NCBI GenBank assembly: GCA_039621445.1
Contig: CP154954.1
Span: 44,991,847 to 45,055,846, forward strand
Direction: 5' to 3'
Source: Euglena gracilis
Lineage: Eukaryota
Length of the DNA stretch: 64,000 nucleotides
Shown piece by piece: positions 1,397 through 61,652 of this stretch. The position numbers and the translations under genes are program-made. The notes below the pieces were generated by a model. That model searched no databases and was not told the origin of the DNA. It saw nothing but the letters and a program-made list of their open reading frames with translations. Position 1 is the stretch's first letter; each line of letters opens with the position of its first letter.

Positions 1397-4300
1397 CTGA
1401 TCTTTGCCTGGGGCAGGGAGGGGGGCCCAACAGACTAGACGTCGCCGTTGTGTGAATCAATTTTGCTTCATTTTGGTTCCTCTTTTTTTTAAGAAAAAAA
1501 GAATGGCCGTTAAAATGAGCTAGAAAATTGATATCATGTGTGAAAAATGGTGCACCAGAAATGGCTAAAATTATTCTGAAAGAGGTGATATCTAACAAGG
1601 CCAAATGGCCGCCAAGGATTGTTGGCTATCATTTTTAAAAGTCAAAAAAAAAAAGCGGAAAGACTGAAAAATTATCTAAACGGACATGACACCCCTTTGT
1701 CCCCCATTTTATGCCGATCATTTCTGATTTTGGTTCCCCCCCTAGGACCCCCCCAAAAGAGTGTTAGCTGGTGGGTGGTAAACGGTTTGCGCCCCCTGGC
1801 CCCCCTGGCTTTGGCGTTTCTGAGTTTCTTATTTCAACATTGCAACAGGCCAAAGGCCGCCTATAAGGTTGGCTCATAATTGTCAAAAGTCAAGAAAACG
1901 CCAAAGTGGCCAGCAATGGGCAAGGTGACAAAATTAGCTAAACGGACATAAACACCCAAAAATTGGCCATATACCCCCATTTATGGCCGAATTTCTGATT
2001 TTGGGTCCCTTCCTCCCCACTAGTCAAAGACCCCCCCTTGACAGCTGGAGTTGAACATTAGCTGTTTTGCGCCCCGCCCCCCACCCCCGGTCAGAGAAAA
2101 AACGCTGGTTTGTGGAAAAAGGAAAGGGTTTGACCCCCCAAAAATGTGCTCTCCCCCCGAGTCCCCCCCCCTGGCCCCCCAGGGAAGAGTGTGCTCTGTG
2201 GGGCGGCAGGGAACCCAGAACCCAACCCAGACCGCCCATAGAGCCGCTGGAGCAGCGGCGGGCGCCAGCCGTGCCTCGACGACTGCCTCGCCACGCGCAG
2301 CTTCGCCGCGTGCCCCCCGCTCTTGGATTCACTTAATACCTGTGTGACCCCACCCCCCAAGGGGAGGGGGTTTGAGTGTGGGTGGTGGGTTGGGGCTGCC
2401 GGACCCTTCCAGGGGGGTGCGCCATCAGTCAGATTTTGGCCCGGCCAAAGGCCGGGCCGAAAAAATTTTATCCAGGGTTTTTGGCTGATTTTGGCTGTAT
2501 TTTGGGTGGGTGGGTGTGGGTGGGTGACCCCGGGGAGGGGTCTTGGGTCGGTGGGTTTTCAAAAAAGTGGGCGGTGGGTTTGGGTCCGGGAAAAAGTGCC
2601 CCCCCCCCCCCCGGGGTCACCAAGCGAATCCGTGGCCCCGCTGCCGGACGCCTGCCGGCAGTGCCTCGGCGTCTGCCTCGACGTGCCGGGCGGCAGCGCG
2701 GCCTGTGTCACCCGCGGGGCGCTGTCCCTGCCGCGTGCATGCGCGCCGTAGTTTGGTCAGTTTCGGCGGTGGCGGCGGGGGCTGTGCGCCCCGCGGCCCC
2801 GACCTCTGCCTGGCTGTGCCGGGGCCGTGCACCCCCTACACCCTCTGCCCCGGCGGTGGCGGGGAAACCGGAAGGCGGGGGCCGCGACTGACTTCCCCAC
2901 CGAAGTTTGTACCGATGGTGCGCGGGGTCAGGGTGCAATGGACGGAGGGTGTACGTTCAGGTGAGGGTCCCCCACCTCCCCCCTTCTTGGACCGGACGGG
3001 GGCGCGGGGGGGTTCCGACCTGCCACCTGCCAGGGGGGGGGTCCGCAGCGACCTTGGGGTCCCCCCAAAAGGTCAAAATTTTCTTTCCATCAATTTACGC
3101 CAAAATTTTTGGCAATTTTGCCAAAAATTTTGGCAATTTTGCCAAAAATTGTCCCCCCAAAATGGCCCAGAATGGCATTTTTGGCTGATTTGGGGGTGTG
3201 GGGCAAAATTCTTCGCCCGGCGTTTTGTGACAGGGCGAAAAATCAGTCGCTCGGACAGCACCGCTGTTTGGGTGCCCCCCCTCCTGGACTGGGGAAGGGG
3301 TCGACCCACCCCAGGGATGGATGGGAAGCCCTTCGGTATTGAGGTAGGTGGTAGGGGGGGGTCCCGACCACCCCCCCCCTGGGGGGGTAAGGTGGTAGGG
3401 GGGGGTCGCTGAGCTCTTATCCCTTTATGGGTAAGAGCGAAGCTTACCACCGGCGAAACCCCCCCCCTCGACCCCCCCCCTCCCCCCCCCCCCCCCCCCC
3501 GGGTCGGGGCCACCTCGGGAACCGACGGATTATCACCATGATCCCGGCCCGGTTCCCGGAATTTTTTTTTCCAGTCGCGAGCGACTGGATTCCTAGTTTC
3601 CGAATCACCTGGGTTTGACCCCCAACTCCCCGCCAGGCCCGAGTTATTCACGCACGAAGGGGTCCAAACTCGGTAGGATTTACCCGCCCCCCCTGGATAA
3701 GCCCCCCCCCCCTTTGGACTCTGCCATTTCGGCCAAAAAATGTCAATTTTCAAAATATCTCCAAAATGAAGCCAAATCAAAGGAAATGTCCGGAGACCTA
3801 ATTTGAAGCCCTTGGAACGCCCCATCTACCGGTATTTTGATTTCCCCGCAACTCCCCGCCTAGCCCGAGATACGGCCGTTTTCGGCGCACCTGGCCGTTT
3901 TGTACACTTTTCCCTCTGCTCGACTTAGCCGTTTTCGGGGGGTGGGGGGTCAAAAAATCGATGTTTTCAAAATTTCTCGAAAATGATGCAAAATCAAAGG
4001 AAATGTCCAGAGACCTAAATTGAAGCCCTTGGAACGCTCTATCTACTGGGATTTTGGTTTCCCCGCAACTCCCCGCCCAGCCCGAGATACGGGCGTTTTT
4101 TGGCCAATTTGGGCCATTTCAGGCCATTTTGTACATTTTCCTTCTGTTCGACTTGGCCGTTTTCGGCCAAAAAAGCCGAAAAAAATCGCAAAATTTTTTT
4201 GCCCGAAACGATGTTTTTTGACCTCCCGGACCCAGAAAAACTGTTTTCGAGCCGAAAACGAGCGTTTTTCGACCCGCCGGTGCCCCGTTTTGGGCCGCCG

Positions 4301-7297
4301 ACCCATTGACTTTGGGTCAAAACCGGGTCAAAAAAGTCGAAAAAAATCGAAAAATTTTTTTTTGCCCGAAACGATGTTTTTTGGCCTCCCGGACCCGGAA
4401 AAACTGTTTTCGAGCCGAAAACGAGCGTTTTTCGACCCGCCGGTGCCCCGTTTTGGGCTGCCGACCCTTTGACTTTGGGTCAAAACCGGGTCAAAAAAGT
4501 CGAAAAAAATCGAAAATTTTTTTTTTGCCCAAAACGATGTTTTTTGGCCTCCCGGACCCGGAAAAACTGTTTTCGAGCCGAAAACGAGCGTTTTTCGACC
4601 CGCCGGTGCCCCGTTTTGGGCCGCCGACCCATTGACTTTGGGTCAAAACCGGGTCAAAAAAGTCGAAAAAAATCGAAAAAATTTTTTTTGCCCGAAACGA
4701 TGTTTTTTGGCCTCCCGGACCCAGAAAAACTGTTTTTGAGCCGAAAATGAGCGTTTTTCGACCCGCCGGTGCCCCGTTTTGGGCCGCCGACCCTTTGACT
4801 TTGGGTCAAAACCGGGTCAAAAAAGTCGAAAAAAATCGAAAAAAAATTTTTGCCCGAAACGATGTTTTTTGGCCTCCCGGACCCAGAAAAACTGTTTTTG
4901 AGCCGAAAACGAGCGTTTTTCGACCCCCCGGCGCCCCGTTTTGGGCCGCCGACCCATTGACTTTGGGCCAAAACCGGGTCAAAAAAGTCGAAAAAAATCG
5001 AAAAAATTTTTTTTGCCCGAAACGATGTTTTTTGGCCTCCCGGACCCAGAAAAACTGTTTTTGAGCCGAAAATGAGCGTTTTTCGACCCCCCGGCGCCCC
5101 GTTTTGGGCCGCCGACCCTTTGACTTTGGGTCAAAACCGGGTCAAAAAAGTCGAAAAAAATCGAAAAAAATTTTTTTGCCCGAAACGATGTTTTTTGGCC
5201 TCCCGGACCCAGAAAAACTGTTTTTGAGCCGAGAATGAGCGTTTTTCGACCCGCCGGCGCCCCGTTTTGGGCCGCCGACCCTTTGACTTTGGGTCAAAAC
5301 CGGGTCAAAAAAGTCGAAAAAAATCGAAAAAATTTTTTTTGCCCGAAACGATGTTTTTTGGCCTCCCGGACCCAGAAAAACTGTTTTTGAGCCGAAAATG
5401 AGCGTTTTTCGACCCCCCGGCGCCCCGTTTTGGGCCGCCGACCCATTGACTTTGGGTCAAAACCGGGTCAAAAAAGTCGAAAAAATCGAAATTTTTTTTT
5501 GCCCGAAACGATGTTTTTTGGCCTCCCGGACCCAGAAAAACTGTTTTTGAGCCGAAAACGAGCGTTTTTCGACCCCCCCGGCGCCCCGTTTTGGGCCGCC
5601 GACCCATTGACTTTGGATCAAAACCGGGTCAAAAAAGTCGAAAAAAATCGAAAAAAGTTTTTTTGCCCGAAACGATGTTTTTTGGCCTCCCGGACCCTGA
5701 AAAACTGTTTTTGAGCCGAAAACGAGCGTTTTTCGACCCGCCGGTGCCCTGTTTCTGGCACAAAACACATGCATTTCAGTCAAAAGAGCTCCATGGGTGT
5801 GCCGGTATGTATGGAGGGGTCAATGAAGGGGTGGGTGCGCGCTTCCCAAGAGCTCAGCACTATTCAAAACCTGGTCCGGACCCCCCCCCCCCCCCCTAGA
5901 TGTTGGGAGGGGGGGTCCGGACCCCCCCACCCCCCCCCTCCTTGACAGGTGCCAAAAATAGCAGAAAATTTTCTTCCGGCACTGTGCGCCGGAAAATGAG
6001 CAAAAAACACCCCTTTTGCTGACTTTTGGCCATATTGCCCATTTTTTGATGTGTTGGTGTTTTCCCCCAAAAACATGTTCAAAAAAATTCAAAAAATGAG
6101 CATTTTTGGAACGATTTTCAAAGAAAAATCAGGTGTTTTTGACCGATTCCGACCCGATTTCCGGCCCTTTGCCCGTCCATGAAATCGAAAAAATTTCGGC
6201 CCCCCCTCAGTTTCGAGGTAGGAGGGGGGGGTCCGACCCACCCCCCCCCCTCCGTGTCGGGAGGGGGGGGGTCCGACACACCCCCCCCCCTCAAGGCTTC
6301 CCATCCATCCCTGACCCACCCCCACCTGCCCTCACATTGGACGGCAATGCATCCACAGACGGACATCAGCAGCTTTGAGGGCACACCTTTGCATGTGCTT
6401 TAGGGCAAAAATTATTGGACCACCCAGTTTTCCAACAATTTTTTCCCGCTATTTTACGCCCAATATTTTCCTATTTCCCTTAAGAGAAACTGCTTCTTTG
6501 TTCACTTTTTGGGGGGACTAATTAGGATCATCATAAACATGAAGCCAAGATGGGCAAAAGAAGCATTTTTAAATAAGATTCTTTTTTTGTTGTTTTTGGA
6601 ATTTCTTCAGCTGGAAAGCTATGGCGTGGCGCAGCGAAGAAGCCCGCCGGTCCCAAAGGGTCAATACATCAACACCCCTTCTCAAATGGGAACGGGTGGC
6701 GAGGGAGAAATGTCGCAGCCCCCCCTATTCCATCCCACTCGTGCAATTCCCAGGGTTTCCATTCAGCCTTGGGGAGAGGCAGGCAGGAAGAGTTTTGGCT
6801 TCCCAATGACCACCTCGCCTGTTAAAACCACCCCAGCCAGATGACAGGGAGCACGAGAGCACAGGGAGCCCTCAAATCCCTGCTCTGGGCTCAGGCGGGA
6901 TGTAACCATCGTGGGACGGCAGAGAGGGTTCATCCCCACCCCCCACCCCCAGCCCCCTCCGGGCCTCCCAACCCAGGGCAGGATGGGAACTGTACCATAT
7001 GTGCGTGGGGGGTGGGGGCGACCCCCCGTTCCCCCTCCTCCCCCCCCACCCCACCCCCGCCCCTCTGCCCACCGCCGGACCCCGCCGGACGGCGTTGTGC
7101 CGGGTGGAGTGCGCCACGGTCGACGCCGCCACCTCCGCCGCCCTCCCGCCGGAGGTCCAGGCCGAAGCCGCGGGGCAGGGGGCGGAGCGGGCCGGCGCCG
7201 AGCCGCAGGCGGTGCACAGCGGCAACGGCGAGGGCGGGGACGGCCACGCCGCGCGACGGCGCCGCGATATGCACCGGCGGGAACGGCACGGCGGAGA

Positions 7298-7354
<57 letters not shown>

Positions 7355-10086
7355 ACACAAGCGTGGGAAAAGGCATCGAGATGACAGGTACCGGGAATCA
7401 AAGCGTCATGAGAGGAGCAAGGAATCCGAGTTGTACAAGAGGAGCAAGTCTTCGGAGCGTGATGAGCAGGATGAGGAGGGAGGGTCGTATGCCAGAGACT
7501 CGGAGTCCGAGAGCTTTGCCAAGAACAAGGAATCCGAGTTCTCTGAATACTCCAGGGAAGGAAGCCGCCCCGGCACAGGCGGCTACCACGACCGTGGCAC
7601 AGATTCGGAAACGGAGCGCTATCAGAAGAGCAAGGAATCTGAGGACTACCACAAGAAGCAGGAATCGGTGTCCGCCAACCGGGATGGAGATGGCGGGTCG
7701 TACCAGAGGAGCACGGAGTCGGAGAGCTCGGAGAAGAGCAAGGAGTTCGAAAGCTACTCCTCCACCCGGGAAGGACATACCCATCGGCGTGAGGGGGCGG
7801 AGGACATGGTTGGGCAGGGCTGTATGGGAACCCCTCTTGGGTTGATGGGAGGTGGGGGTCAACCACCCCCGCCCCCATCCTGCTTGCCAAGCTGAGCGAT
7901 GCTGGGCGATGCTGGCATTTTCTTTGTACATTTTGAAGAATTAAACCCATTTTTAGACTAATGGGGGTACGAACCCCCACCAGGACTTCCTGTATTTTGG
8001 GGGCACCGGCTCTTTGGGCAAGTTCTTCGTTGTGTATATGGTGCTGTGGTGAGTCGGAAGGTGCGCATCATGCTGGACACCGTGGCCAGGCGGCCATTGT
8101 TTGCTTCCAGCCCAGCTTGTCGCATCCTCGAAACCCTCCCCCAAAAAGCTGTGTAATTTTGTCACTGTCGAATATTTTATATTGGGAGATCAATCGTGGG
8201 GGTCGACCCCCCTCCCCCCAACCCCGCTGCCCGGCCTTCCTGGACAGCCCTGGGGCCAGGGCCGGGGAGGGGGCGGCCGTGGGGCGGGTCCCCCCGTTGC
8301 TGGCGGAGGCGCTGCGGACCGGGGCCGCGGCCCACTCCGCCTGCCCCCCTGCCGCTGCCGGGCGGTGGGCGTGTTGCTCGGCCTTGACCCTGTCAAGGGT
8401 GCCCGTGTACCTGGATGTGCCTGTCCACTTCGGGAAATAATTGAGAAACGAAACGACGGGCGAACACCGAAAAGGCCTTTTTTCAAAAAAAAATTCGTTG
8501 CCTTCGGCGTCGGACCCCCCCCCCCTCTCCGGGAAGTCAACATGTTCAGTTCAGTTCGGAAGTGAATTGGGGGGGGGGGTTCCCAGCGGACCCCTCGAAA
8601 CACAAGACCCTCGCTGAGAACCTTTTTTGGTTAGGTGGAGGTTTCTGTTAAGTTGCATGATTGCCGTTTGATGGCCTTTTTTAGGGGTGGACACAAGGCG
8701 TGGGGACTGATTGTATTTCTGGACATTTTTTTGTGCATTTCGAAAGTTCTGAAGCTTACTCGGCTTCAGTTTCCTGTTGCATGCAGTCAGGTGGGACCCA
8801 TTGCCCAAAATTATTTGCAGCCGATGGGCTGTACCCGTTCATTGCTTTCACACTGGAAGACGGGTTCGGGTTGAAGAATACAAAATGGAATGTCCGCAGC
8901 ATACAGTGCAGTGGGAGACTCTTCTGCTTTGTCGACCCAAGCAGCTGTATCGTCCTAAAGCCCATGCCCCAATAATTTTACTGCTGTTGTGCGGTTGCCA
9001 AGCTCAATATGCAGTAAAGGCACCCATTGAAGCCCCGTGGACCGTCCCGCTGTTTGTGTTGGCTTTTGGAGCCAACGTGGCTTGGGCGCCCTTGGCGCGG
9101 GGGTTCAAGCCAACGTCAAGCGAGCAGGCACCCCCCGGCAGGCGGGCTGCCCCGGCCCCCAGCCCTGAGTTTCGGCTCGCCCGCAACGCCCCGGGGCGGC
9201 GGGGGTCCCCACCGCCCCCGCCGATGCGTAGCGCCGACGAATGGCTTGGCCGGCCGTCGCGTCCGCTGCGGGCTGCGCCGGGGTTGGCCGCCGGCGGCGC
9301 ACGCGTCCAGGATTGGACGGCGTTGGTGCCAATGCCCGGGGACGTCTGTTCTCCCCCCGATTTCCATCGCACCCACCCGCCCTGGGATGGGTGGATGGAT
9401 CTGAAGTGGAAAGGTCTTATTGTCCGGATAGGCATCCGAGGACCCCTGATGCCCCAGGTGCCCATGTGGTGCAGGCTTCGGTACCTGAATGGTCCGGGGT
9501 GTCTGGACAGGTCGGTGGGACAGCATTTGCAACCCGGTGGTCGACCGCACCACCATCCACAGGTTTTCATAAAGCCCTGCCCGGGGGGGGGGGGGTTGGG
9601 TCCCGGCTGGGTCTTACCTCCAGCCAAATTGCACCTGGAAATGCCTATTCCAGGCCGGCGGTGCCGAGGTTCTGCATCCCACACATCATACCCTGCCCTG
9701 AAACTGGACCCGCACCGGCCCCCCTCCCCCGTCCCCCCTTCACATGTTTCGGGGGCGCCACCCCCCCCCCCACAAACATTTTCCTGCGGCGCCAAAGTCA
9801 CAGAAGGATTCTGTTCGCAAACTGACATGTAGTGCCCCCCCCCCCACCACCACCACAGCCCTGCCCCCGGGAGTTAGACACCTGCTGTTCGTGTTGGAAT
9901 CCCAGAGACATTCTCGGACCGTTGCTGGGGAGGGGGGCGAATTCCGACCTGGCCGGCTTTGCCAATGGCTGGATCCGGCGTGGCCCGGGGCCCAGGTGTT
10001 CCACTGACCGCCACCCCCCCCCCCCCCCGAATGGCCCCCCTGGGGGGGAGGGGGCCCCCGAGGAGTATGGCCCGCGGCCTGCATAG
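905..10086 (+). CDS. Spliced gene A (5' end unresolved, possibly upstream of the window): unknown protein with Cys-rich domain, poly-Asp and Ser/Glu/Lys-rich insert; paralog of gene B
   Basis: Exons found by similarity to gene B: ~905-1027 (…LLVTQTAS), ~2249-2318 (WSSGGRQPCLDDCLATRSFAACP), 2640-2715 (PLPDACRQCLGVCLDVPGGSAACVTR), 2795-~2851 (GPDLCLAVPGPCTPYTLCP), ~7074-7811 (RRTALCRVEC…poly-D…), 8258-~8316 (PPLLAEALR), ~9199-9330 (DEWLG…WTAL), ~9910-10086 (GPLL…EEYGPRPA*). Intron 7812-8257 has ggg-CAGGGCTGT…ACAGCCCTG-gggcc ends. Several junctions are approximate. Confidence 0.65.
1077..1342. mobile_element. MITE, CAGGCTTGTGCT family
   Basis: Ends CAGGCTTGTG…CACAAACATG. TGTTGTTG on both sides, but within a (TTG)n tract so weak as a TSD. 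Body matches 25319-25600 and 50220-50512. Confidence 0.75.
2319..2639 (+). other. Paralog-specific nonconventional intron derived from a TIR element
   Basis: Removal gives TGC CCC CCG CTG, matching the uninterrupted paralog at ~13075-13086. Imperfect ~20-bp inverted ends; flanks CCCCCGCT (2314-2321) and GCCCCGCT (2635-2642). Confidence 0.8.
4165..5750. repeat. Intronic tandem satellite, ~163-bp unit x ~10
   Basis: CCC(G/A)AAACGATG recurs at ~4202, 4365, 4528, 4691, 4853, 5016, 5179, 5342, 5502, 5666; preceded by a ~240-bp duplicated block (~3740-4200). Confidence 0.95.
7297..7350 (+). repeat. (GAC)n coding poly-Asp tract
   Basis: GAT followed by an uninterrupted GAC run inside the large exon of gene A. 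Confidence 0.9.
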
Positions 10087-11666: not shown

Positions 11667-14600
11667 ATGACTGCCGCGTGGGGCATTTTGCTGTGGTTCA
11701 TCTCCCACGCTGTGTGGGGCTCCGGCGCAGCGGACGGCGCTCCCGGTGCGATGCGCCGGGCCCTCCTCCGCGCGATGCGGCTGGGGGTGGCGGCCGGGGG
11801 CCCGGCGGCGGCCCCCCTCGTGACCCGGCCCGCCGTCGCCACAGACAGACAGACAGGTTGCAGCAGTGATTGTTGTCGCCTGGGTGGAGGAGGAGGAGGA
11901 GGAGGAGGTGGTGGTGGTGTCCTTGTCAGGCACAGACAGACAGAGCCCAACCCAGGCACACTGGCACACCCTGCTTTTCCATTCGGCCAACGGGAACAGG
12001 GCCTTTTTTTAAAAAAAAGGCATCCCCCCCATGGAAACTCTCCTCCCCGGGAAACTGTCCTCTGTCTGTTTGCACCCACCAAAGTCCTCACAGGGACGGC
12101 GAAAAGAGCCAATACCCCGCAGATATGGCCCAGGGGGGGGGAAATTATGCGGTCCGCATTATTCCGCATTATTCCGCATTTCCGCATTATTCCGCATTTT
12201 TCCGCATTTTTCCGCATATTTTCCGCATTTTTTTTTGTAAATTTTCCGCATTTTTCCGCATTTTTGCATTTTTTTTCTTTTTTCCGCATAATTTCCGCAT
12301 TATCCCGCATTTTCCGCATTTTTCCGCATAATTTCCACATTTTTCCGCATAATTTCCGCATTTTTTGTGAATTTTTTACGTTTCAGGTCAACTACAAGGT
12401 TCATTGTTTCCCCAATATGTTGGAGCACATGTGCTCGTCTTTTCATCTCTCTGTTTTATGCATAATTTGTGCTTTGTTTTTCCATTGCATTTTGGTGATT
12501 TTTGGCAAGCTTGGGCATCGGCGATGGGAATCAAATAGCATCGGGACCCTGCATATTGTGAGGTAGAAATATATCTGTCCTCTCCATGTGACCTGGGACT
12601 CCACAGAATTTCGGCATATTTTCCGCATTTTCCGCATTTTTCCGCATATTTTCCGCATTTTTTTTCTGCATAATTTCCGCATAATTTCCGCATTTTCCCG
12701 CATTTTTCCGCATAATTTCCGCATTTTTTCCCCGCCTGCCAGACCGCATAATTTCCCCCCCCTGTATGGCCACAAAATACCCAGAATGCAAAAATTGATG
12801 CAAAATGTGCAAGATTGTGAAGAAAAAGACTGTGTTCCTCCTTCCCCGGTGAGGAGACAATTTCCCGGGAGGGGAGTATGTCGTGTGTATCACGTAGGAT
12901 AACTGTGTCGGATGTGTGTGTGGGACAGGAATGTGTTCATGAAATCATATTGGGTCCGACACAGAATGGAGGCATATTGTCACATGTTCACTCCAACCTT
13001 CCAATGCGGATTGGAGCGGCGGCGGGCGCCAGCCGTGCCTCGACGACTGCCTCGCTATGCGCAGCTTCGCAGGGTGCCCCCCGCTGCCAGACGCCTGCCG
13101 GCGGTGCCTCGGCGTTTGTTACGAAGTGCCAGGCAGCAACGCCGCCTGTATCGCCCGCGGGTCGGTGGGCGGTGTGCAGTCCTCGTCAGGCTTTTGCTTA
13201 AGGGATTGCAGTACCCCCCCCGGGGGGGGGAGGGCTGGACTGCAGCTAGTCCAAATTTGGCTATTTGGCCAGTGGGATTTATAGCAGACCCCCACCGGGG
13301 GTCTGCTAGCAGGGCTAGCTAGTGGAAAGATTTTTTCCAGTGACCGGCGCAAAGCGCCGGAATTTTTTTGGGACCCCCAATAATGGCCAAAAATGCCCGT
13401 TTTTGGCCATTTTTGGGAATTTTTGGGACAAAATCAGCCAAAAACCTGTAAAAAGCCCTCATTTTTTCCAGTCCGGGGGACCCCCGGACCCCCCCCCCCC
13501 AGGGGGGAGGGGGGTCCAGCTAGTCCGCTTTTTCCAGTGTCTAGCCGATTGGCTAGCCACCCCCCCCCCGGGTCCTTAAGCAAAAGCCTGGTCCTCGTGC
13601 AGGGGAAAGGTGTCCCCCCCCCGCGGGGTCACTACCCCCCCCCCCCCCGGAAAACTGTCATGCCCGAGAACCTGTCAGGGTCCCCGGTACCGGCCAACCT
13701 GTCAGGGTCATTTTTCATTGACTTTCCCTTGAAATGCCCTACCCGGGAAACTGTCAGGGTCCCGCCCGGGAAATTGTCAGAGTCCCTGGTACCGGCCAAC
13801 CTGTCAGTATAGGAAGTTGTCAGGGTCCCCTGTACTGGCCAACCTGTCAGGTGACAGTTTCCCGGGGGGGGGGGGTAGGTATGTAAATCTGTGCTCACGG
13901 TGCGTGTGTGTGCGCTCCGGTGCACAGTGGTGAGCGGGGGTTCCACCGTTCCGCGGTGTCGACCTCTGCCTGGCGGCGCCGGGGCCGTGCACGCCCTACG
14001 TCCTGTGCCCCGGCGGCGGGGGGCTCTCAAACCCCGGGAGGCGGAGACCCTCCTCCAAGGGAAAGTATTGCTCTGGTTTTTGGGGGATATTTTCCTCATA
14101 ATTCATACAATTGTTGTAAATTTGGAGCCGTGTTGCATGTTCTTGGACAGTTTTTTGCATTTTTGTGACTTTTGCATTGTTCCTCTCGACTTTTGACCAT
14201 TTTTGCGCTTTTTTTTTAGAGCCCTCCGCTTTTGAAGTTGCTACGAACCATTTTCGCGAATTTGAATTTGTGGTGTTGATTTGACCTGTCACGTCCCTCG
14301 GGCTGGGGGGGGGGGTAGCTTTGGGGTCCGACCAACCAACAGTTTTCCCAGGCATTGGTTTTTTTGGTCAGAATTTTCTTTTGGCACCTTCGCCTCCGGA
14401 GGTTTTTTTCTTTGCGTGATGCCCCACTTGGAGAGCAGTTACGTTTATAGGACAATCGTACCCCCTTTGGGTCTGGCTTCTTTTTTTTTTTACTTGGAAG
14501 GCACCCCTTCTCCTTCCTCTGGGTGAGTCTTTGGGGGGGTGGAAAATTTTCCGTTTGTCTATCTATTGTCTATTGTTCACTCCCTTCCCACTGTTCTTAC

Positions 14601-17600: not shown

Positions 17601-20600
17601 GAAGAATTTTGTCGGCCCTGAACTACAGACCCCAGTAATGTGGTGACCATTCTCCCATGTAAGTGAGTCCCCAAAGGGTGCACAGTGCCCAAATATGTGT
17701 CACACTCTGAGCCTCCGAAAGTGATGTCCAAGAAAGTGCGCGCCCCCTGTAACGGCCGTTTTGAACTGAACCAATCCCAGGTTATGCCCTAACAAGTGCC
17801 TGAATGGGAATCCCCGAAACCCTGTGGATGGTGAGTGGGGGGTCCCCCCCCATCCTTGCGGGTTGGGGAGTCCTACCCCCCTCCCCTGCCGGGCCTTCCT
17901 GTGGGTGGTGGGTTGGGGCTAACCACCTCCCCCCCCCCCTCCTGGTTGTTGGCTCCGATCACCAGTCCTCACCGTGCACTGAAATGGGAGGGGGTAATGA
18001 GAGAAGTCCATTTTTTTTTAGGGCAAGCTGATGGAGGTATTGTCGGCTTGGTGTGTTCTCTTGTGTTTGAGTTAGATTGGGATTACGGTTAGGGCTTCAA
18101 TTGTAGTTGAGAAAGGGGCAGTGCCGTGGTTTTCCGAAGTTTGGAGGTTGGGCCGAATTTGGGCCTGAACGTCGGTGTCAGTCATTCCTAATTTTTGGCC
18201 AATTTGGGTTGGGCTAAACCTTCACACAAACTCTATTCCGCATCCGAACCCTGACCCTATCCCTGCACCTGGGGACCCGGGGGCGGCTTTGCCAACTACA
18301 GGAAGAGCGATACACAGGCTGCTTCTTCAGGCCAAGGCCTCCCTTCTGTGTGAGTTTATTTCACCCCAAACCCCAAACCTGGGAAGACAGGTTTAGTCCT
18401 CCCATATTCCAAAATACAATCACAAAGTATTCAATAATAAACGCATAGTGTGGTCATCTTGAACTTGCTGTGCTGCAAAAAGAAATGAGCCTGAACCTGA
18501 GCAGAAGCACAAGGAAGGAGAGTGCCATGAAGAGCACAAGCACAAGGAAGCAGGGTTCCATGAGGAGCACAAGAAGGGAGAGCATCATGACGGCCAGGCT
18601 GTTTTATTTTATATGTGCTAAGTTAAAACGTTAAACGAAGGTGAGGTGTATGGAATCAATCGGACTCTTTTGGTGAGAAGCAGGGGGGTTCTCCTATCAT
18701 CGTTTACCCCAGGGTTCGATATAAGGAGGGCATAAATGGTTAAGGTGGGGGGTGTCCCCCCCACCCCCCCCTCCTGGCCCGCAGGGGGGGGGGGGGTCCG
18801 GCCCCCCCCCCACCTGCCAGGGGGGTCCGGACCGACCCCAGGGGGGTACCTGGAACCCCCCCAAAAAGGTCATTTTTTTCCCCTCCGGTGCTTTGCGCCG
18901 GAGTTTTTTGGTAATTTTCTGCCATTGACCGGATGAAAAAACACTATGTGCTGCTTGCACTTTGATTTCGCTGGATGTCAAATTTTTGGCCTGGCGCTTC
19001 GCGGGCCGAAAATCGGTCACCCGGACCGCGCCACTGTTTAGGTGGGGGGGGTGTCCCCTCCACCCCGCCCCTCCTGGCCCGCAGGGGGGGGGTCTGGACC
19101 CCCACCTGTCCTTATATCGAACCCTGGTTTACCCCCATCTTTTTAACAGTTTCAGAATTTTTTTCCCCTTTTGCCTGTTTCATTTGCCGTTTCGTGCAAT
19201 TCTTGAGCTGCATTTTTAATTTGTTTGTGTGCATATTACCCCTTCCTGTTCACCCGAGGGGAGAGGCTGGCTTCTTTTCCAAGGCTTCTTTTCTTTCTTC
19301 TTGTCAAGACTTCTTTTTCTGCCCTCAGAAGGGACCCCATCCGGGGGGGGGGGGTGAGGGGGTGGATGTATCCGGGCTGCAGATGAGCATATGGTAGAGG
19401 CGTGGAGAGCCAAAAATTTTTGCCCTCAAACAGCCCGATTTTGGAGAGGGGGGCCCGTGCTGGGCTGGGTAGGGGGGACCCCCGCCTCCGCCCCCCAGGG
19501 GGCTTAAAAAGAGGCCTGGCTGGGGTCAAGTTGATGGGTTCAGGTGGGCGGTGCGCGGAGTTGCCTTCGGCCAGAAGTGCCGTAAGCCCGGGACCGGATC
19601 ATTTTCGGCCCATTTCTGGTTCCCGGGTGTGGGAATCCACCATCCGGCCACCCCGCCACCGCCTCCGGCCCCGAAACGGGGGCCCAGTTGCCCGGGTGGG
19701 GGCCCCAATCCTTCGTTCCCACTGCCGGTTCCTCCGGGGTTGGGGCAAGGGGCCTGAGCGGGAGGACCGGCACCGGGAAGGCTGCCACGAGGAGCACAAG
19801 GAGGAGGAGTGCCACCGTCACGGCAAGCACGAGGAGTGCGAAGGCGGGGAGCACCGCACGGAGCACAAGGAAGGGGAGTGCCATGCCGCCGACGAGCGCA
19901 AGGAGGGCGAGCACCACGAGGAGAGACGGCGCCGCGACATGCATCAGGGAGGCGAGTCGCAGCAGGGGGTGAAGGAAGGCCAGCGCCAGGACCACGGCGT
20001 CGCTTAAGCTGAAGTGGACCCCAGGGTTTGGGGGGGGGGTCCAGCCAGCAGGCAGCCTTTTTTTCCAGACCCAGAACACCCCCCGTCCTCATCGACGAGC
20101 AGCAAAATGAGCAATCGGTGAGCAATTTTTTGTATTTGGGGGTTCAGAAATGGCGGGGAAAACAAACGGGCAGAAATGGACGGAATTGGGCTGGTCAGGG
20201 CAAGTTTTGGGTGAAAAAATGGACCGTTTTTCAACATGGAAGTGGGACAGTGCTCCGGGGCGGCAAATATGGGTCACCACTCTGGCAGCAACAATGATTG
20301 CACTGGCACCCGCTGGAAGGCAGGAGGGAATAAGGCAAAACCATCTCTTTTTGCGGTGTTTTTTTTGCATTTTCGTTTTGTGTACCCAATTTAATCCCCG
20401 CTTGGGCCCAGTTCCAGCCCAGGACCCCTGCAGGGGTGGGGTCACCGAACAGCCTATCTCCAGCCTGCCCACATTCCCCTCAGCCACTGAGCTGTAAAGT
20501 GACGGCGTGGGCTGGACGAGAAGGGGAAGGAGGGAGCCCATCACGAAGACCACAAGGAAGGAGAGCGCCATGAAGAGCACAAGGAAGGAGAGCGCCATGA

Positions 20601-23600
20601 AGACCACAAGGAAGGAGAGCGCCACGAAGAGCACAAGGAAGGCGAGCGCCACGAAGAGCACAGGGAAGGAGAGCGCCACGAAGAGCACAGGGAAGGCGAG
20701 CGCCACGAAGAGCACAGGGCAGGCGAGCGCCACGAAGAGCACAAGGAAGGCGAGCGCCACGAAGAGCACAGGGAAGGCGAGCGCCACGAAGAGCACAAGG
20801 AAGGAGAGCGCCACGAAGAGCACAAGGAAGGCGAGCGCCACGAAGAGCACAGGGAAGGCGAGCGCCACGAAGAGCACAGGGAAGGCGAGCGCCACGAAGA
20901 GCACAAGGAAGGAGAGCGCCATGAAGACCACAAGGAAGGAGAGCGCCACGAAGAGCACAAGGAAGGAGAGCGCCACGAAGAGCACAAGGAAGGCGAGCGC
21001 CACGAAGAGCACAGGGAAGGAGAGTGCCACGAAGGGCACAAGGAAGGACAGCGCCACGAAGAGCACAAGGAAGGACAGCGCCACGAAGAGCACAGGGAAG
21101 GAGAGCGCCACGAAGGGCACAAGGAAGGACAGCGCCACGAAGAGCACAAGGAAGGCGAGCGCCACGAAGAGCACAGGGAAGGCGAGCGCCACGAAGAGCA
21201 CAGGGAAGGCGAGCGCCATGAAGAGCACAGGGAAGGCGAGCGCCACGAAGAGCACAGGGAAGGCGAGCGCCATGAAGACCACAAGGAAGGCGAGCGCCAC
21301 GAAGAGCACAGGGAAGGCGAGCGCCACGAAGAGCACAGGGAAGGCGAGCGCCACGAAGAGCACAGGGAAGGCGAGCGCCACGAAGAGCACAGGGAAGGCG
21401 AGCGCCATGAAGAGCACAAGGAAGGACAGCGCCACGAAGAGCACAGGGAAGGAGAGCGCCACGAAGGGCACAAGGAAGGAGAGCGCCATGAAGAGCACAA
21501 GGAAGGCGAGCATCATGATAGGCACGAGAATGGGCAGCACCATGAAGAACACAACTCCAAGAAAGGAGAGAATCATGAAAACCACAAGTACAAGGAAGGA
21601 AAGTATCATGACGACCAGGCTGTTTTCTTTTTCAAAAGCCAGGTTAGGGCGTGTTGATGCTTGACACGCCCCATTCCTGCCAGGAAAGGTTCTTCATGCT
21701 GGAGGTTTCTGTGTGGTCCCGAGATATATTACGTTTTCTTTGGCGCGTTTGTTTGAATGTGTCGTTGCAGTTTATTATTATGGTTTGCAGTGAGGTCCCA
21801 AAAAAGGGGGTTCCCATCATTCCTGTTGTTTTTTTTTAAAAAAAGAAAACACCACAGTATCAGAGTCAGGCTTCTTTTTAAGTCACCCGACCCCCCCCGG
21901 GGGGGAGGGGGGGGTGGGTGGGTGGGTCCGGGCCGGACCCCCCCCCGGGGGGGGGGGGGGTCCCGCGCCGGAGGCGCTGGGTATACCTTTTCGGCGCGAA
22001 GCGCCGAAAATTTCAGAAAATTGCCTTTAACGGGCCCGATTTTGGGGGGGGGTCCCCGGGGGGGTCCTGCGCCACCCTGGGTGGGTGGGGGGGACCCCCC
22101 CTCCACCCCCGGGGGTCTTAAAAAGAAGCCTGGTCAGAGTTTTGTTTCTTTTTTTTTTGTTTTTGTTTATGCCGTTTTGGGCTGCATTTTAAATTTTTTT
22201 TGCATGTGCATTATCTCCTCTTGTCAGCCAGTCAGCCAGCAGCCTTTTTTTCCCATCCTCGGACCCCTCTCCCCCCCTATCGGTAAGTTTATTTCTCAGC
22301 CGCCTTCAGAGCAGGTTGATAATGGATATTTGGCAAAATTGGGCCAAAAATAGGCAAAAAAATGGGCCCTGGCAGTTTTTGGGTCGCCTTTAACAATTTT
22401 TTTTCCACCACACAGACACAACTCCTGGGCAACAGGGCGTTGCTCAACGGAAAATCTGGGCTGGCTGGAGAACCGTCGCAGGGCTGAAACTAGGTCCGAG
22501 GCGAGTAACATCATTTTTGTCAATTATTGTATCGCAGCTGGTTTTTCTACTTTGCTGCTGAGCTCCCCCTTTTTCCGTGACAAGATTTTTTTTACATGCA
22601 CGTCTAGAAAACTTTCTTTTATCTGTTGCACCTTTTTGTCGTCGTTTCACAACGATTTTTTTTTTGGTTTTGCATTCATTGGTTGATTAGCGTTTGTTTT
22701 GGTGTGTTTGTGTTTTGGGCGCCTGTGGGGCCCATTCCTTCCCTCTATGATTTACCCTCCGGGTCTGGGTCGGGGGTTTTCAGCCGGAGGGGACCCTACC
22801 CCCCGGGGGGGTCCAGCCAGCCAGCACCTCCCAGCCGGGCTGCAGACCCCCTCCCGCCAGGGGTCCGCTGGAATAAAGCTCGTGCCAGCCCCGCTTCGCC
22901 GGGCTGGACCGAAAAAATTTTTCTTGAAGAGAGGGTCGAAAATGGCCAATGATGGCGGTTTTGGGCGGTTTTGGGGGTTTTACCTCAAACCTGTGGTTGA
23001 AAGAGCCAGCTGGATTTGGGCTTTTGGGGCTTTTTTGGGTACCCGCCTGGTCCAGCTCCCAGTCCGGGCGGACCCCCCTCCCCTGGACCCCCCCCTGGGG
23101 GGCGGGGGGTCCAGCCAGCACCTTTTCCCAGCCGGCCCGCGGGACCCCCCCCCCCGGAGGGTCTTTAAGAAAACCCCTGCTCTGGGTGCCGGGGACCAGA
23201 GCCTGAGCAGGAAGGCGACCAATGCAAGGAGCGCAAGGAAGGAGAACGCCGCCATGAGTGCCGGAGCGAGGAGGGCAGGGAGGCCCGTGCGGCCCACAGG
23301 GAAGGCCCCGACGGTCGTTGTGGTCAGAGCTTTGTTTCAGAGGAGTGGCGTCGTTCACAGGTTCACATGCCAGTGGGTCATCATTGTCGGCCCGATCCAT
23401 TGCATTTCAGTTTGGTTTCATGTTTCACGTATGACCCCGAGGGCAGTGTCACACCTTGCCCTCTTCAAGGGCAAGGTTCGAACGGAAGGGTGCCCCACGG
23501 AGCCGGCACAAGGACGCTCCTCCCAGGCGCGTGGAAATGGCATTTGCCAAACTGAGTAATGCGGTTGAGGGGTTTGTTCTCAATTGAGACATCCAATGTG

Positions 23601-29720: not shown

Positions 29721-42297
<12,577 letters not shown>

Positions 42298-47947: not shown

Positions 47948-58927
<10,980 letters not shown>

Positions 58928-60266: not shown

Positions 60267-61652
60267 GCTGCAGGAGGAAGGTTGAGGTTCGAGGTTGGGT
60301 CATTTTGAACGCTCCAAATACCCCTTACTATGATTCAAAGAGGCTCAAGAGGTTCCTCCTCCATTCCTGTTTTCAGGGGTTTGATGTTTTCTTGATCTTT
60401 TCTTTCCTTTCTTGGTCGTTTCTTCTTCTTGGTCTTTTTTTTTCCAGCAAAGACCGTTCCCTCTCAAAAGGGCACGGGCAGCAAGCGGAGGGGGGGGGAT
60501 TGACATGCGCAATTTCCTCAATTTTTTCTGAAGGCCTCCAATATCGACCCCCCCACCGGAGCCACAAGCGGCCATGCCAAAACCAAATAAAGCACAAAGG
60601 GATCGGACATTTGGGACGACTCTCTTCCCCTCCGAAACGTGTTAGGAGGCTTTCGATCGAGGGTCACAAGACTCCAGAACCCCCCAATCATGTCCAACGA
60701 AGTCCCCGAGCGTTTGTCAGTTTGTCGGGGAGGGGCCACCGACGTTCAAGGAGCCGTCCCACTGGAGCATTCCGCCCCCTTCCTTGGGGAGGTTGAGGCG
60801 CCGGTCATCCTGGCCGTCAGGGGAGGGGGAACCAGCGTTAGAGCGCTTTGTTGGAGACCTCCACTGGCCACGTGGCCCGCAGTGCCCCCTGCCCCCTGCC
60901 CCAACCCAGTGCCCCCGTGCCTTCCCAGCCCTCGAACACACATCCACTAACCCCGGTGTGACCCCCCGGGTGGTTTTTTGAAAGTGGGTGGAGGGGGTGG
61001 GTTCGGGCCATTGGACCCCCTCCCCTAGGGTGCATCACAGTCAGCCCAACCCAGCCGAGGCCACGTTGGCAGGAAAAATTCAAAGGTTCTAGGCTTAATT
61101 CGGGTTATTTTGGTTGGCAGAGTGAGTGGGTGCCCCCCCCCCCCCGGTGGGTTGTGGGTGGGTGGGTTTTTGGTTGAGGGCAAATTCCAATTCCCTCCCC
61201 TGAGGACGTGGATGCATGCCCTCGACCCTTCCCGCAGCCAGACACCGGCGTACCCGGTCGGCTGCCTCTGCCGAGGGCCAGGCAGTGGGGGTTGGCACGT
61301 CACCTTCTTTGGCTTGCAAGAAAACTATGAACCAGGGGGAAATTTTTGTGCATTTTTTTTTCAATTTGTGTCGGTACATTTTGGGGTTTTCGCAATTTTG
61401 GAAATCGCGGCACATTTTGCACATTTTTTTGCACATTTTTTGATTTCCCCAATTTTCAATATTTTCTTTCCATTGTTGTGTTTTTTTCCCATAATTTTGA
61501 ATCTGTGCCATTTTTTGCATAGTTTTTTTTTTTTGAATAATTTTTGAAATAATAAATAATTTTTTTGAAATAATAATAATAATTTTTGAATAATTTTGTG
61601 CAATTTTGCACATTTTTGCGCAAATTTTCCCCAGGCCGGGTTAGCACACCTA

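Follow-up and report, generated by a model that had tools for sequence, protein, structure and literature searches.

The 64,000-nucleotide (nt) stretch of Euglena gracilis DNA analyzed here (assembly GCA_039621445.1, contig CP154954.1, forward-strand positions 44,991,847 to 45,055,846; hereafter the window, numbered from its first letter) has a euglenid-nuclear-like architecture, with short GC-rich exons and introns that lack GT-AG ends and close in a stem. Comparison of the window with itself identified two tandem gene pairs, one encoding papain-family proteases and one, here called A and B, encoding a Cys-rich protein. Protein searches with a B exon gave 0 hits, one spurious repetitive protein, and no Atlas hit, so they provided no useful relative and the gene family is left unnamed. 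Over 170 nt of aligned exon, A and B differ at 22 positions (synonymous divergence, dS, about 0.28; nonsynonymous divergence, dN, about 0.10). Gene A carries 321 nt that are absent from B, and spliced A has the same frame as B, with no indel over these 170 nt. Contigs from four runs were placed on positions 1900-3450: X18 and X19, which are labeled RNA by guess, and X1 and X17, which are DNA. The features that bear on the A-specific segment are listed below; "3+5 register" denotes cuts 3 nt outside the 5' end and 5 nt outside the 3' end of the inserted element.

2267 to 2318, plus strand: gene A exon 5' of the A-specific intron; start predicted from the 3+5 register in B, with an RNA-type contig match from 2265
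2319 to 2639, plus strand: A-specific nonconventional intron, 321 nt; length from RNA-type contigs, exact register predicted
2640 to 2709, plus strand: gene A exon from the A-specific intron to the shared intron (X18 record 16)
2801 to 2848, plus strand: following gene A exon (contig join, A/B alignment)
13078 to 13085, plus strand: empty site of B with a single copy of the 8-mer, within exon 13031-13152; present in a B-type DNA contig of X1
2314 to 2321, plus strand: 5' duplication copy; 5 nt exonic, then 3 nt intronic in the 3+5 register
2635 to 2642, plus strand: 3' duplication copy; 5 nt intronic, holding the one mismatch, then 3 nt exonic
2322 to 2634, no strand assigned: repetitive element of 313 bp resembling transposable elements of the miniature inverted-repeat type (MITEs), with ends CTT...GTG
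2322 to 2334, plus strand: 5' terminal inverted repeat (TIR) arm, 10/13 match to the 3' arm
2622 to 2634, minus strand: 3' TIR arm, 10/13 match to the 5' arm
60937 to 61218, plus strand: independent relative, collinear with the insert from one end to the other, with 193 of 268 aligned positions identical

The site of the segment is uninterrupted in B, which reads TGC CCC CCG CTG at 13075-13086. The initial annotation proposed that the segment is a MITE-like insertion with decayed inverted-repeat ends and a 7/8 duplication of the empty site, and this description was borne out. The 8-mers at 2314-2321 and 2635-2642 are identical at 7 of 8 positions, and both correspond to the single B 8-mer. The 321 nt consist of the 313-bp element and one 8-bp duplication, with no other residue. 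When these intron ends were placed across 21 exon stretches, the boundaries of which are mostly predicted only, flanks matching at 7/8 or better arose at 5 of 2,103 sites, and random pairs of exonic 8-mers reached at least 7/8 in 0.2% of 200,000 draws.

The interior of the insert is short, noncoding, and repetitive, and Pfam gave no match for the one frame scanned across it. Its relative in the window has its own 7/8 duplication (60929-60936 and 61219-61226) in the same register as that of the insert. The global alignment score of the two was 105, compared with a maximum of -15 among 300 shuffles and a best score of 37 among 824 other stretches of the window. Contig depth in six bins of the insert was 4,645-160,646 in X1 (89-404 upstream) and 68-1,043 in X17 (0-9 upstream), although such summed depth does not measure copy number and is inflated by low-complexity G/C runs. 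In metagenome contigs, a 22-nt pattern taken from the 5' end of the element had 0 matches. The insert is the one exonic copy of its family observed within the window, where most elements are intronic or intergenic.

Contigs of X18 and X19 join position 2314 to 2636, thereby skipping 321 nt, and they carry the letters of A, with 0 differing letters in the listed pieces. Record 16 of X18 spans 2265-2314, 2636-2708, and 2800-2849, and because none of its 173 letters differs from A, this record represents A rather than B, without two introns. Depth in X18 and X19 was present in exonic bins and 0 in the intronic bins 2316-2367 and 2732-2783. In the DNA run X1, record 4 spans 2262-2456, and since this independent run bridges exon and insert, the insert is not an assembly artifact. 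A joint that skips the insert is also found in the DNA runs. The X1 joint has B letters at all 6 listed positions; the X17 joint shares four listed letters with B and differs from B at four others, and X17 record 10, placed on 2636-2721, is B-like and empty at the insertion site. This X17 sequence may be a divergent allele or a third paralog of the B lineage. No A-type empty allele was present in the X1 and X17 contigs, which show presence and cannot prove absence.

The perfect direct repeat at the junctions is 7 nt long, so the cut may fall after any position from 2314 to 2321, and the 8 resulting registers give the same product. The proposal in the initial annotation that splicing 3 and 5 nt from the element restores the frame was therefore correct as to the B-like frame, but all 8 registers do so, not this one alone. 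No register has GT-AG or GC-AG ends, and 0 of 8 end in AG. The predicted register, 2319-2639, places a pyrimidine/purine step at both junctions, with C(+4)-G(-6) as the closing pair, and it leaves the mismatch of the duplication in the unconstrained part of the intron. When the two ends were folded alone, they formed a duplex of -28.6 kcal/mol, and 0 of 500 shuffles were as stable.

This arrangement resembles the splicing code published for euglenid nonconventional introns, 5'-N3CDG...CH'GN5-6|R (Nomura et al. 2025, PMC12501133). In knock-in experiments in Euglena, cleavage took place 3 nt upstream and 5-6 nt downstream of the paired motif, with a purine preferred at the start of the next exon (PMC12501133). 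Like these introns, the A-specific intron lacks GT-AG ends, and in its predicted register, 2319-2639, one of the 8 over which it can slide, it would also share with them spacers of 3 and 5 nt that flank a terminal inverted repeat, the purine that follows, C at +4, and G at -6. It differs in its ends, CTT/GTG, which are outside the code. Since the code covers 61.2% of the nonconventional introns of E. agilis (PMC12501133), such ends place the intron outside the strict code and not outside the class. In the portions of that study used here, the spacers are treated as random, slidable introns are set aside for the derivation of the motif, and the 3+5 spacing is not equated with a target site duplication (TSD).

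The next intron of A bears on the same spacing. The initial annotation had placed it at 2716-2794 (79 nt) with 7/8 flanks; this interval is in frame, but X18 record 16 joins 2708 to 2800, which is a 91-nt skip, and the supposed flanks proved to be the two arms, each with CCGCGG, of a terminal stem of 10 bp. The true flanks match at 3/8 in A. The corrected intron, its counterpart in B, and an element nested in the latter are as follows.

2710 to 2800, plus strand: next A intron, 91 nt, at a position shared with B; 3 nt, a CGC...GCG 10-bp stem, and 5 nt, then a purine
13153 to 13960, plus strand: B intron at the position of the 91-nt A intron; flanking 8-mers 6/8 in the predicted register, interior not alignable to A
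13187 to 13590, no strand assigned: intact CAG...CTG MITE nested in this B intron; arms 13/13, perfect 8-bp duplication

The 91-nt intron has only two possible registers, one of which gives exactly 3 nt, a perfect stem, and 5 nt before a purine, and it is the best support for the 3+5 spacing within the gene. Because its position is common to A and B, it is not a second fresh gain. The interiors of the shared intron no longer resemble each other in A and B, since 158 of 200 shuffles scored at least as high as the real comparison. We also observed that the introns 2710-2800, 11827-13030, and 13153-13960, of which a contig join backs only the first, close with perfectly paired CGC/GCG or CCG/CGG and are outside the CDG/CHG code. 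The upstream intron of A (1959-2284) is present in run X1 as two haplotypes, ~2-5% apart. The last exon of A contains a charged low-complexity frame (7300-7800), and a long coding-like repeat rich in His, Glu, and Lys, with a unit of about 27 nt, lies downstream of B (20524-21600).

The protease pair contains a second presence/absence difference: the first intron of the upstream gene (29823-31612) is absent from the paralog (48030-48075). This intron, the junction of which is predicted, has MITE-like ends and a nested element and no recognizable 8-bp duplication. The last catalytic exons of this pair (38956-39156 and 56161-56362) are 99% identical, compared with 78-90% for most other exons, which suggests recent gene conversion; 41511-41715 and 57616-57817 are 94% identical.

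The duplication length of 8 recurs elsewhere in the window, where 11 elements beyond the insert and its relative carry 8-bp duplications. When CAG...CTG inverted pairs were chosen blind to their flanks, 7 of 62 had at least 7/8 identity at a length of 8 nt, compared with 0 of 238 in 20 shuffles. In a relaxed catalog of 11,277 pairs, 57 reached at least 7/8; 39 of these rows were dropped as one TG-microsatellite artifact, and 6 of the remaining 18 were judged to be chance (shuffles gave 3-9). The 13 tabulated elements comprise 8 with 8/8 and 5 with 7/8 duplications, and since most of them were selected on a length of 8 they are not an independent test of duplication length. Lengths of 7 and 9 were rejected, as no tabulated element exceeded 5/7 or 6/9. 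Several elements with 8/8 duplications have arms that match at only 11/13. We also noted a 3-kb element at 3312-6313 with perfect arms, an 8/8 duplication, and an interior filled with a tandem array (about 4150-5760); within 1900-3450, contig depth peaks, by a wide margin, at the end region of this element.

These features make the hAT superfamily a candidate source. MITEs derived from hAT elements have an 8-bp TSD and TIRs of 10-25 bp (PMC3942097). The insert likewise has an 8-bp duplication (7/8 relative to the empty site of B, with the same register in the relative), short arms of about 13 bp that have decayed, and no coding capacity, as in those elements (PMC3942097); it differs in that no autonomous partner was identified for its family. 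One other element in the window bears on this assignment.

30607 to 31430, plus strand: CAG...CTG element, 824 bp, with a perfect 8-bp duplication and a zinc-finger-like remnant at 30902-31105; different family from the insert

The remnant is a C2H2 zinc-finger-like frame that apparently lies behind a GT-AG intron. It had no Pfam match and no sequence-search match, and its nearest Atlas clusters with an assigned family carry zf-C2H2_12 (score 0.94; found in 84% of members) or zf-BED (score 0.92; 12%). Both are domains of hAT transposases. The 824-bp element is thus possibly an internally deleted hAT, and the likeness of its remnant to the N termini of hAT transposases makes it a candidate and a lead only. 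The insert itself was most likely mobilized by a hAT transposase, an assignment that we likewise treat as a lead. P elements have CA...TG ends, a TSD of 7-8 bp, and a THAP-type transposase, and the ends and duplication length of the insert appear compatible with elements of this type. Merlin, which has an 8-bp TSD and is reported from E. gracilis (PMC8101967), was ruled out, since its TIR should begin with GG (PMC8101967) and all 13 tabulated elements begin with C, in scans that required an initial C except for the element at 60937.

Taken together, these data identify the segment as a genuine nonconventional intron that derives from a transposon, is spliced, and occurs in only one of the two paralogs. 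The explanation that we consider probable is that a MITE inserted into an exon of A after the A/B duplication and is spliced out with one copy of the target duplication. A nonautonomous cut-and-paste DNA transposon, of the MITE type with an 8-bp duplication, would have landed in a coding exon of A after A and B had separated by duplication. Euglenid nonconventional splicing would then cut on the outer side of each arm, at a distance of 3 nt from the 5' arm and of 5 nt from the 3' arm, and because 3+5 equals the duplication length, the element and one target copy would be removed together. The 5 nt left of the first copy and the 3 nt left of the second would rebuild the original target, so that the mRNA equals the pre-insertion exon; for this reason the insertion would have been tolerated and fixed, and it would since have decayed by roughly 10%.

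Several observations weigh against this explanation. As to splicing, X18 and X19 are two samples of one study, and their RNA label is a guess. At +6 and -8, the ends CTT/GTG depart from the published CDG/CHG code, with C+4 and G-6 retained. The minimum-energy fold predicted for the segment lacks the terminal stem (pair probability ≤0.008; a penalty of 4.4 kcal/mol), and folding of the whole region gave a z score of -1.65. Other introns do not uniformly follow the pattern: the following A intron of about 4.2 kb (2849-7082, its extent estimated from the end of a contig match) has a 10-bp terminal stem with spacers that appear to sum to 7, not 8, and the shared introns of the protease pair, with predicted and in several cases ambiguous junctions, have a flank identity of about 1-5 of 8 and no clear duplication signal. 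No transposase was found by Pfam in the 148 of 526 candidate frames that were scanned. As to timing, the decay of the insert is comparable in size to the synonymous divergence that each of the A and B lineages has accumulated, and the 7/8 duplication does not date the insertion after the gene duplication, because an older, shared intron keeps 6/8. The polarity is judged from the comparison of A with B.

The view in the initial annotation that an intron gain had been caught in the act is consequently an overstatement. The arms have decayed at 3 of 13 positions and the duplication at 1 of 8, the two DNA runs contained no empty A allele, and no outgroup was available; the intron is an established, partly decayed gain. 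Gain in A nevertheless appears likelier than loss in B when the two genes are compared, because B keeps both of the introns that neighbor the insertion site (52 nt upstream, 70 nt downstream), and because interior similarity is gone from the introns common to A and B, while close relatives of the insert can still be recognized.

The strongest competitor retains the transposon origin and places the insertion before the A/B duplication, with a later precise loss from B through recombination between the 8-mers or conversion by cDNA. Direct repeats favor precise deletion, as is textbook knowledge, the decay of the element (3/13 and 1/8) is near half of the dS of 0.28, and the shared intron in B is still at 6/8. 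We nonetheless regard this history as unlikely. The lack of A-B similarity within the shared introns indicates that the gene duplication is probably older than exon dS suggests, and arms of 11/13 in elements with 8/8 duplications mean that arm mismatch overstates age. Loss of one intron is also set against the retention of both of its neighbors in B, and the second B-like sequence, in X17, is empty as well, though it is of the B lineage and no outgroup.

Repair of a double-strand break that captured filler between short direct repeats, with a repeat length of 8 that is incidental, is the published reading of a very similar case, intron 4 of gapC in E. agilis (PMC4770533). At the A locus, we judge it highly improbable: the filler is one whole element that has both of its ends in common with an independent copy, itself flanked by a separate 8-bp duplication, and 8 is also the duplication length at other elements of the window. 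That there is no intron at all, and that the joined contigs derive from an intron-less DNA copy of A (a retrocopy), from B, or from misassembly, is scarcely credible despite the guessed RNA label and the presence of the joint in DNA runs, given that the DNA joints are B-like (6/6 B letters in X1) while those of X18 and X19 carry A letters, that X1 DNA bridges exon and insert, and that X18 skips two introns in one record, with no depth in unique intronic bins.

Insertion of a MITE into A after the duplication, the explanation that we favor, has close parallels in published work. The gapC intron 4 of E. agilis strain ACOI 323 is a recent, strain-specific gain with an 8-nt direct repeat (PMC4770533), and inspection of Table S3 by eye shows that both junctions divide this repeat 5|3, with CAT...ATG as the ends (PMC4770533). 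It resembles the A-specific intron in being a recent gain relative to an empty counterpart, in its 8-nt direct repeat, and in the 5|3 split; it differs in that the repeat family of the A insert occurs elsewhere with an 8-bp duplication of its own and that the empty site is in a paralog, not in another strain. A MITE origin of euglenid introns was proposed in 2014 (Milanowski et al., PMC3935182) and repeated in a 2024 review (Mikina et al., PMC11282704) and by Nomura et al. (PMC12501133); the transposon hypothesis is only mentioned in the relevant part of PMC11170887. That proposal cites inverted repeats near intron ends and TSD-like junction repeats, as seen here, and gives no element family, duplication length, or superfamily in the portions of PMC3935182 and PMC11282704 on which we rely; the A/B locus adds a filled site with its empty counterpart, a relative from the same family, and contigs in which the segment is spliced out. 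Introners are also nonautonomous DNA transposons with TIRs and TSDs that became introns with the protein unchanged (Gozashti et al. 2022, PMC9860276), and spliced A likewise recovers its coding sequence. Introners carry or co-opt spliceosomal splice sites (PMC9860276), unlike A, in which both cuts would lie within the duplicated target, each at a set distance from its arm, with no GT/AG. The string "Euglen" has 0 occurrences in the main text of that paper (PMC9860276).

A MITE origin and a gain with an 8-nt repeat are thus already published. In the open-access literature consulted on this question, we found no statement in print that the 3+5 spacing equals an 8-bp duplication.

The locus supports the old idea that euglenid introns begin as transposon insertions, and it represents a naturally spliced intron with ends outside the published code. 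It bears on how euglenids gain introns without GT-AG ends and on where the 3-nt/5-nt asymmetry of their splice code comes from. The locus ties these two questions together, because the spacers sum to the duplication of the resident element, so that insertion and splicing cancel. We tentatively suggest, as a possibility that we hold with less than even confidence, that euglenid nonconventional splicing is in essence a reader of the ends of 8-bp-duplicating transposons. It would need little beyond a C-G closing pair and a stem, its cuts at 3 and 5 nt would exist because they undo an 8-bp duplication, and of the hundreds of thousands of these introns in each Euglena genome, the majority would be decayed insertions of this type. 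If this is true, any CA...TG element that lands with a purine at position 6 of its target would arrive as an intron ready for splicing, and the splicing factors may have descended from the transposase or evolved alongside it.
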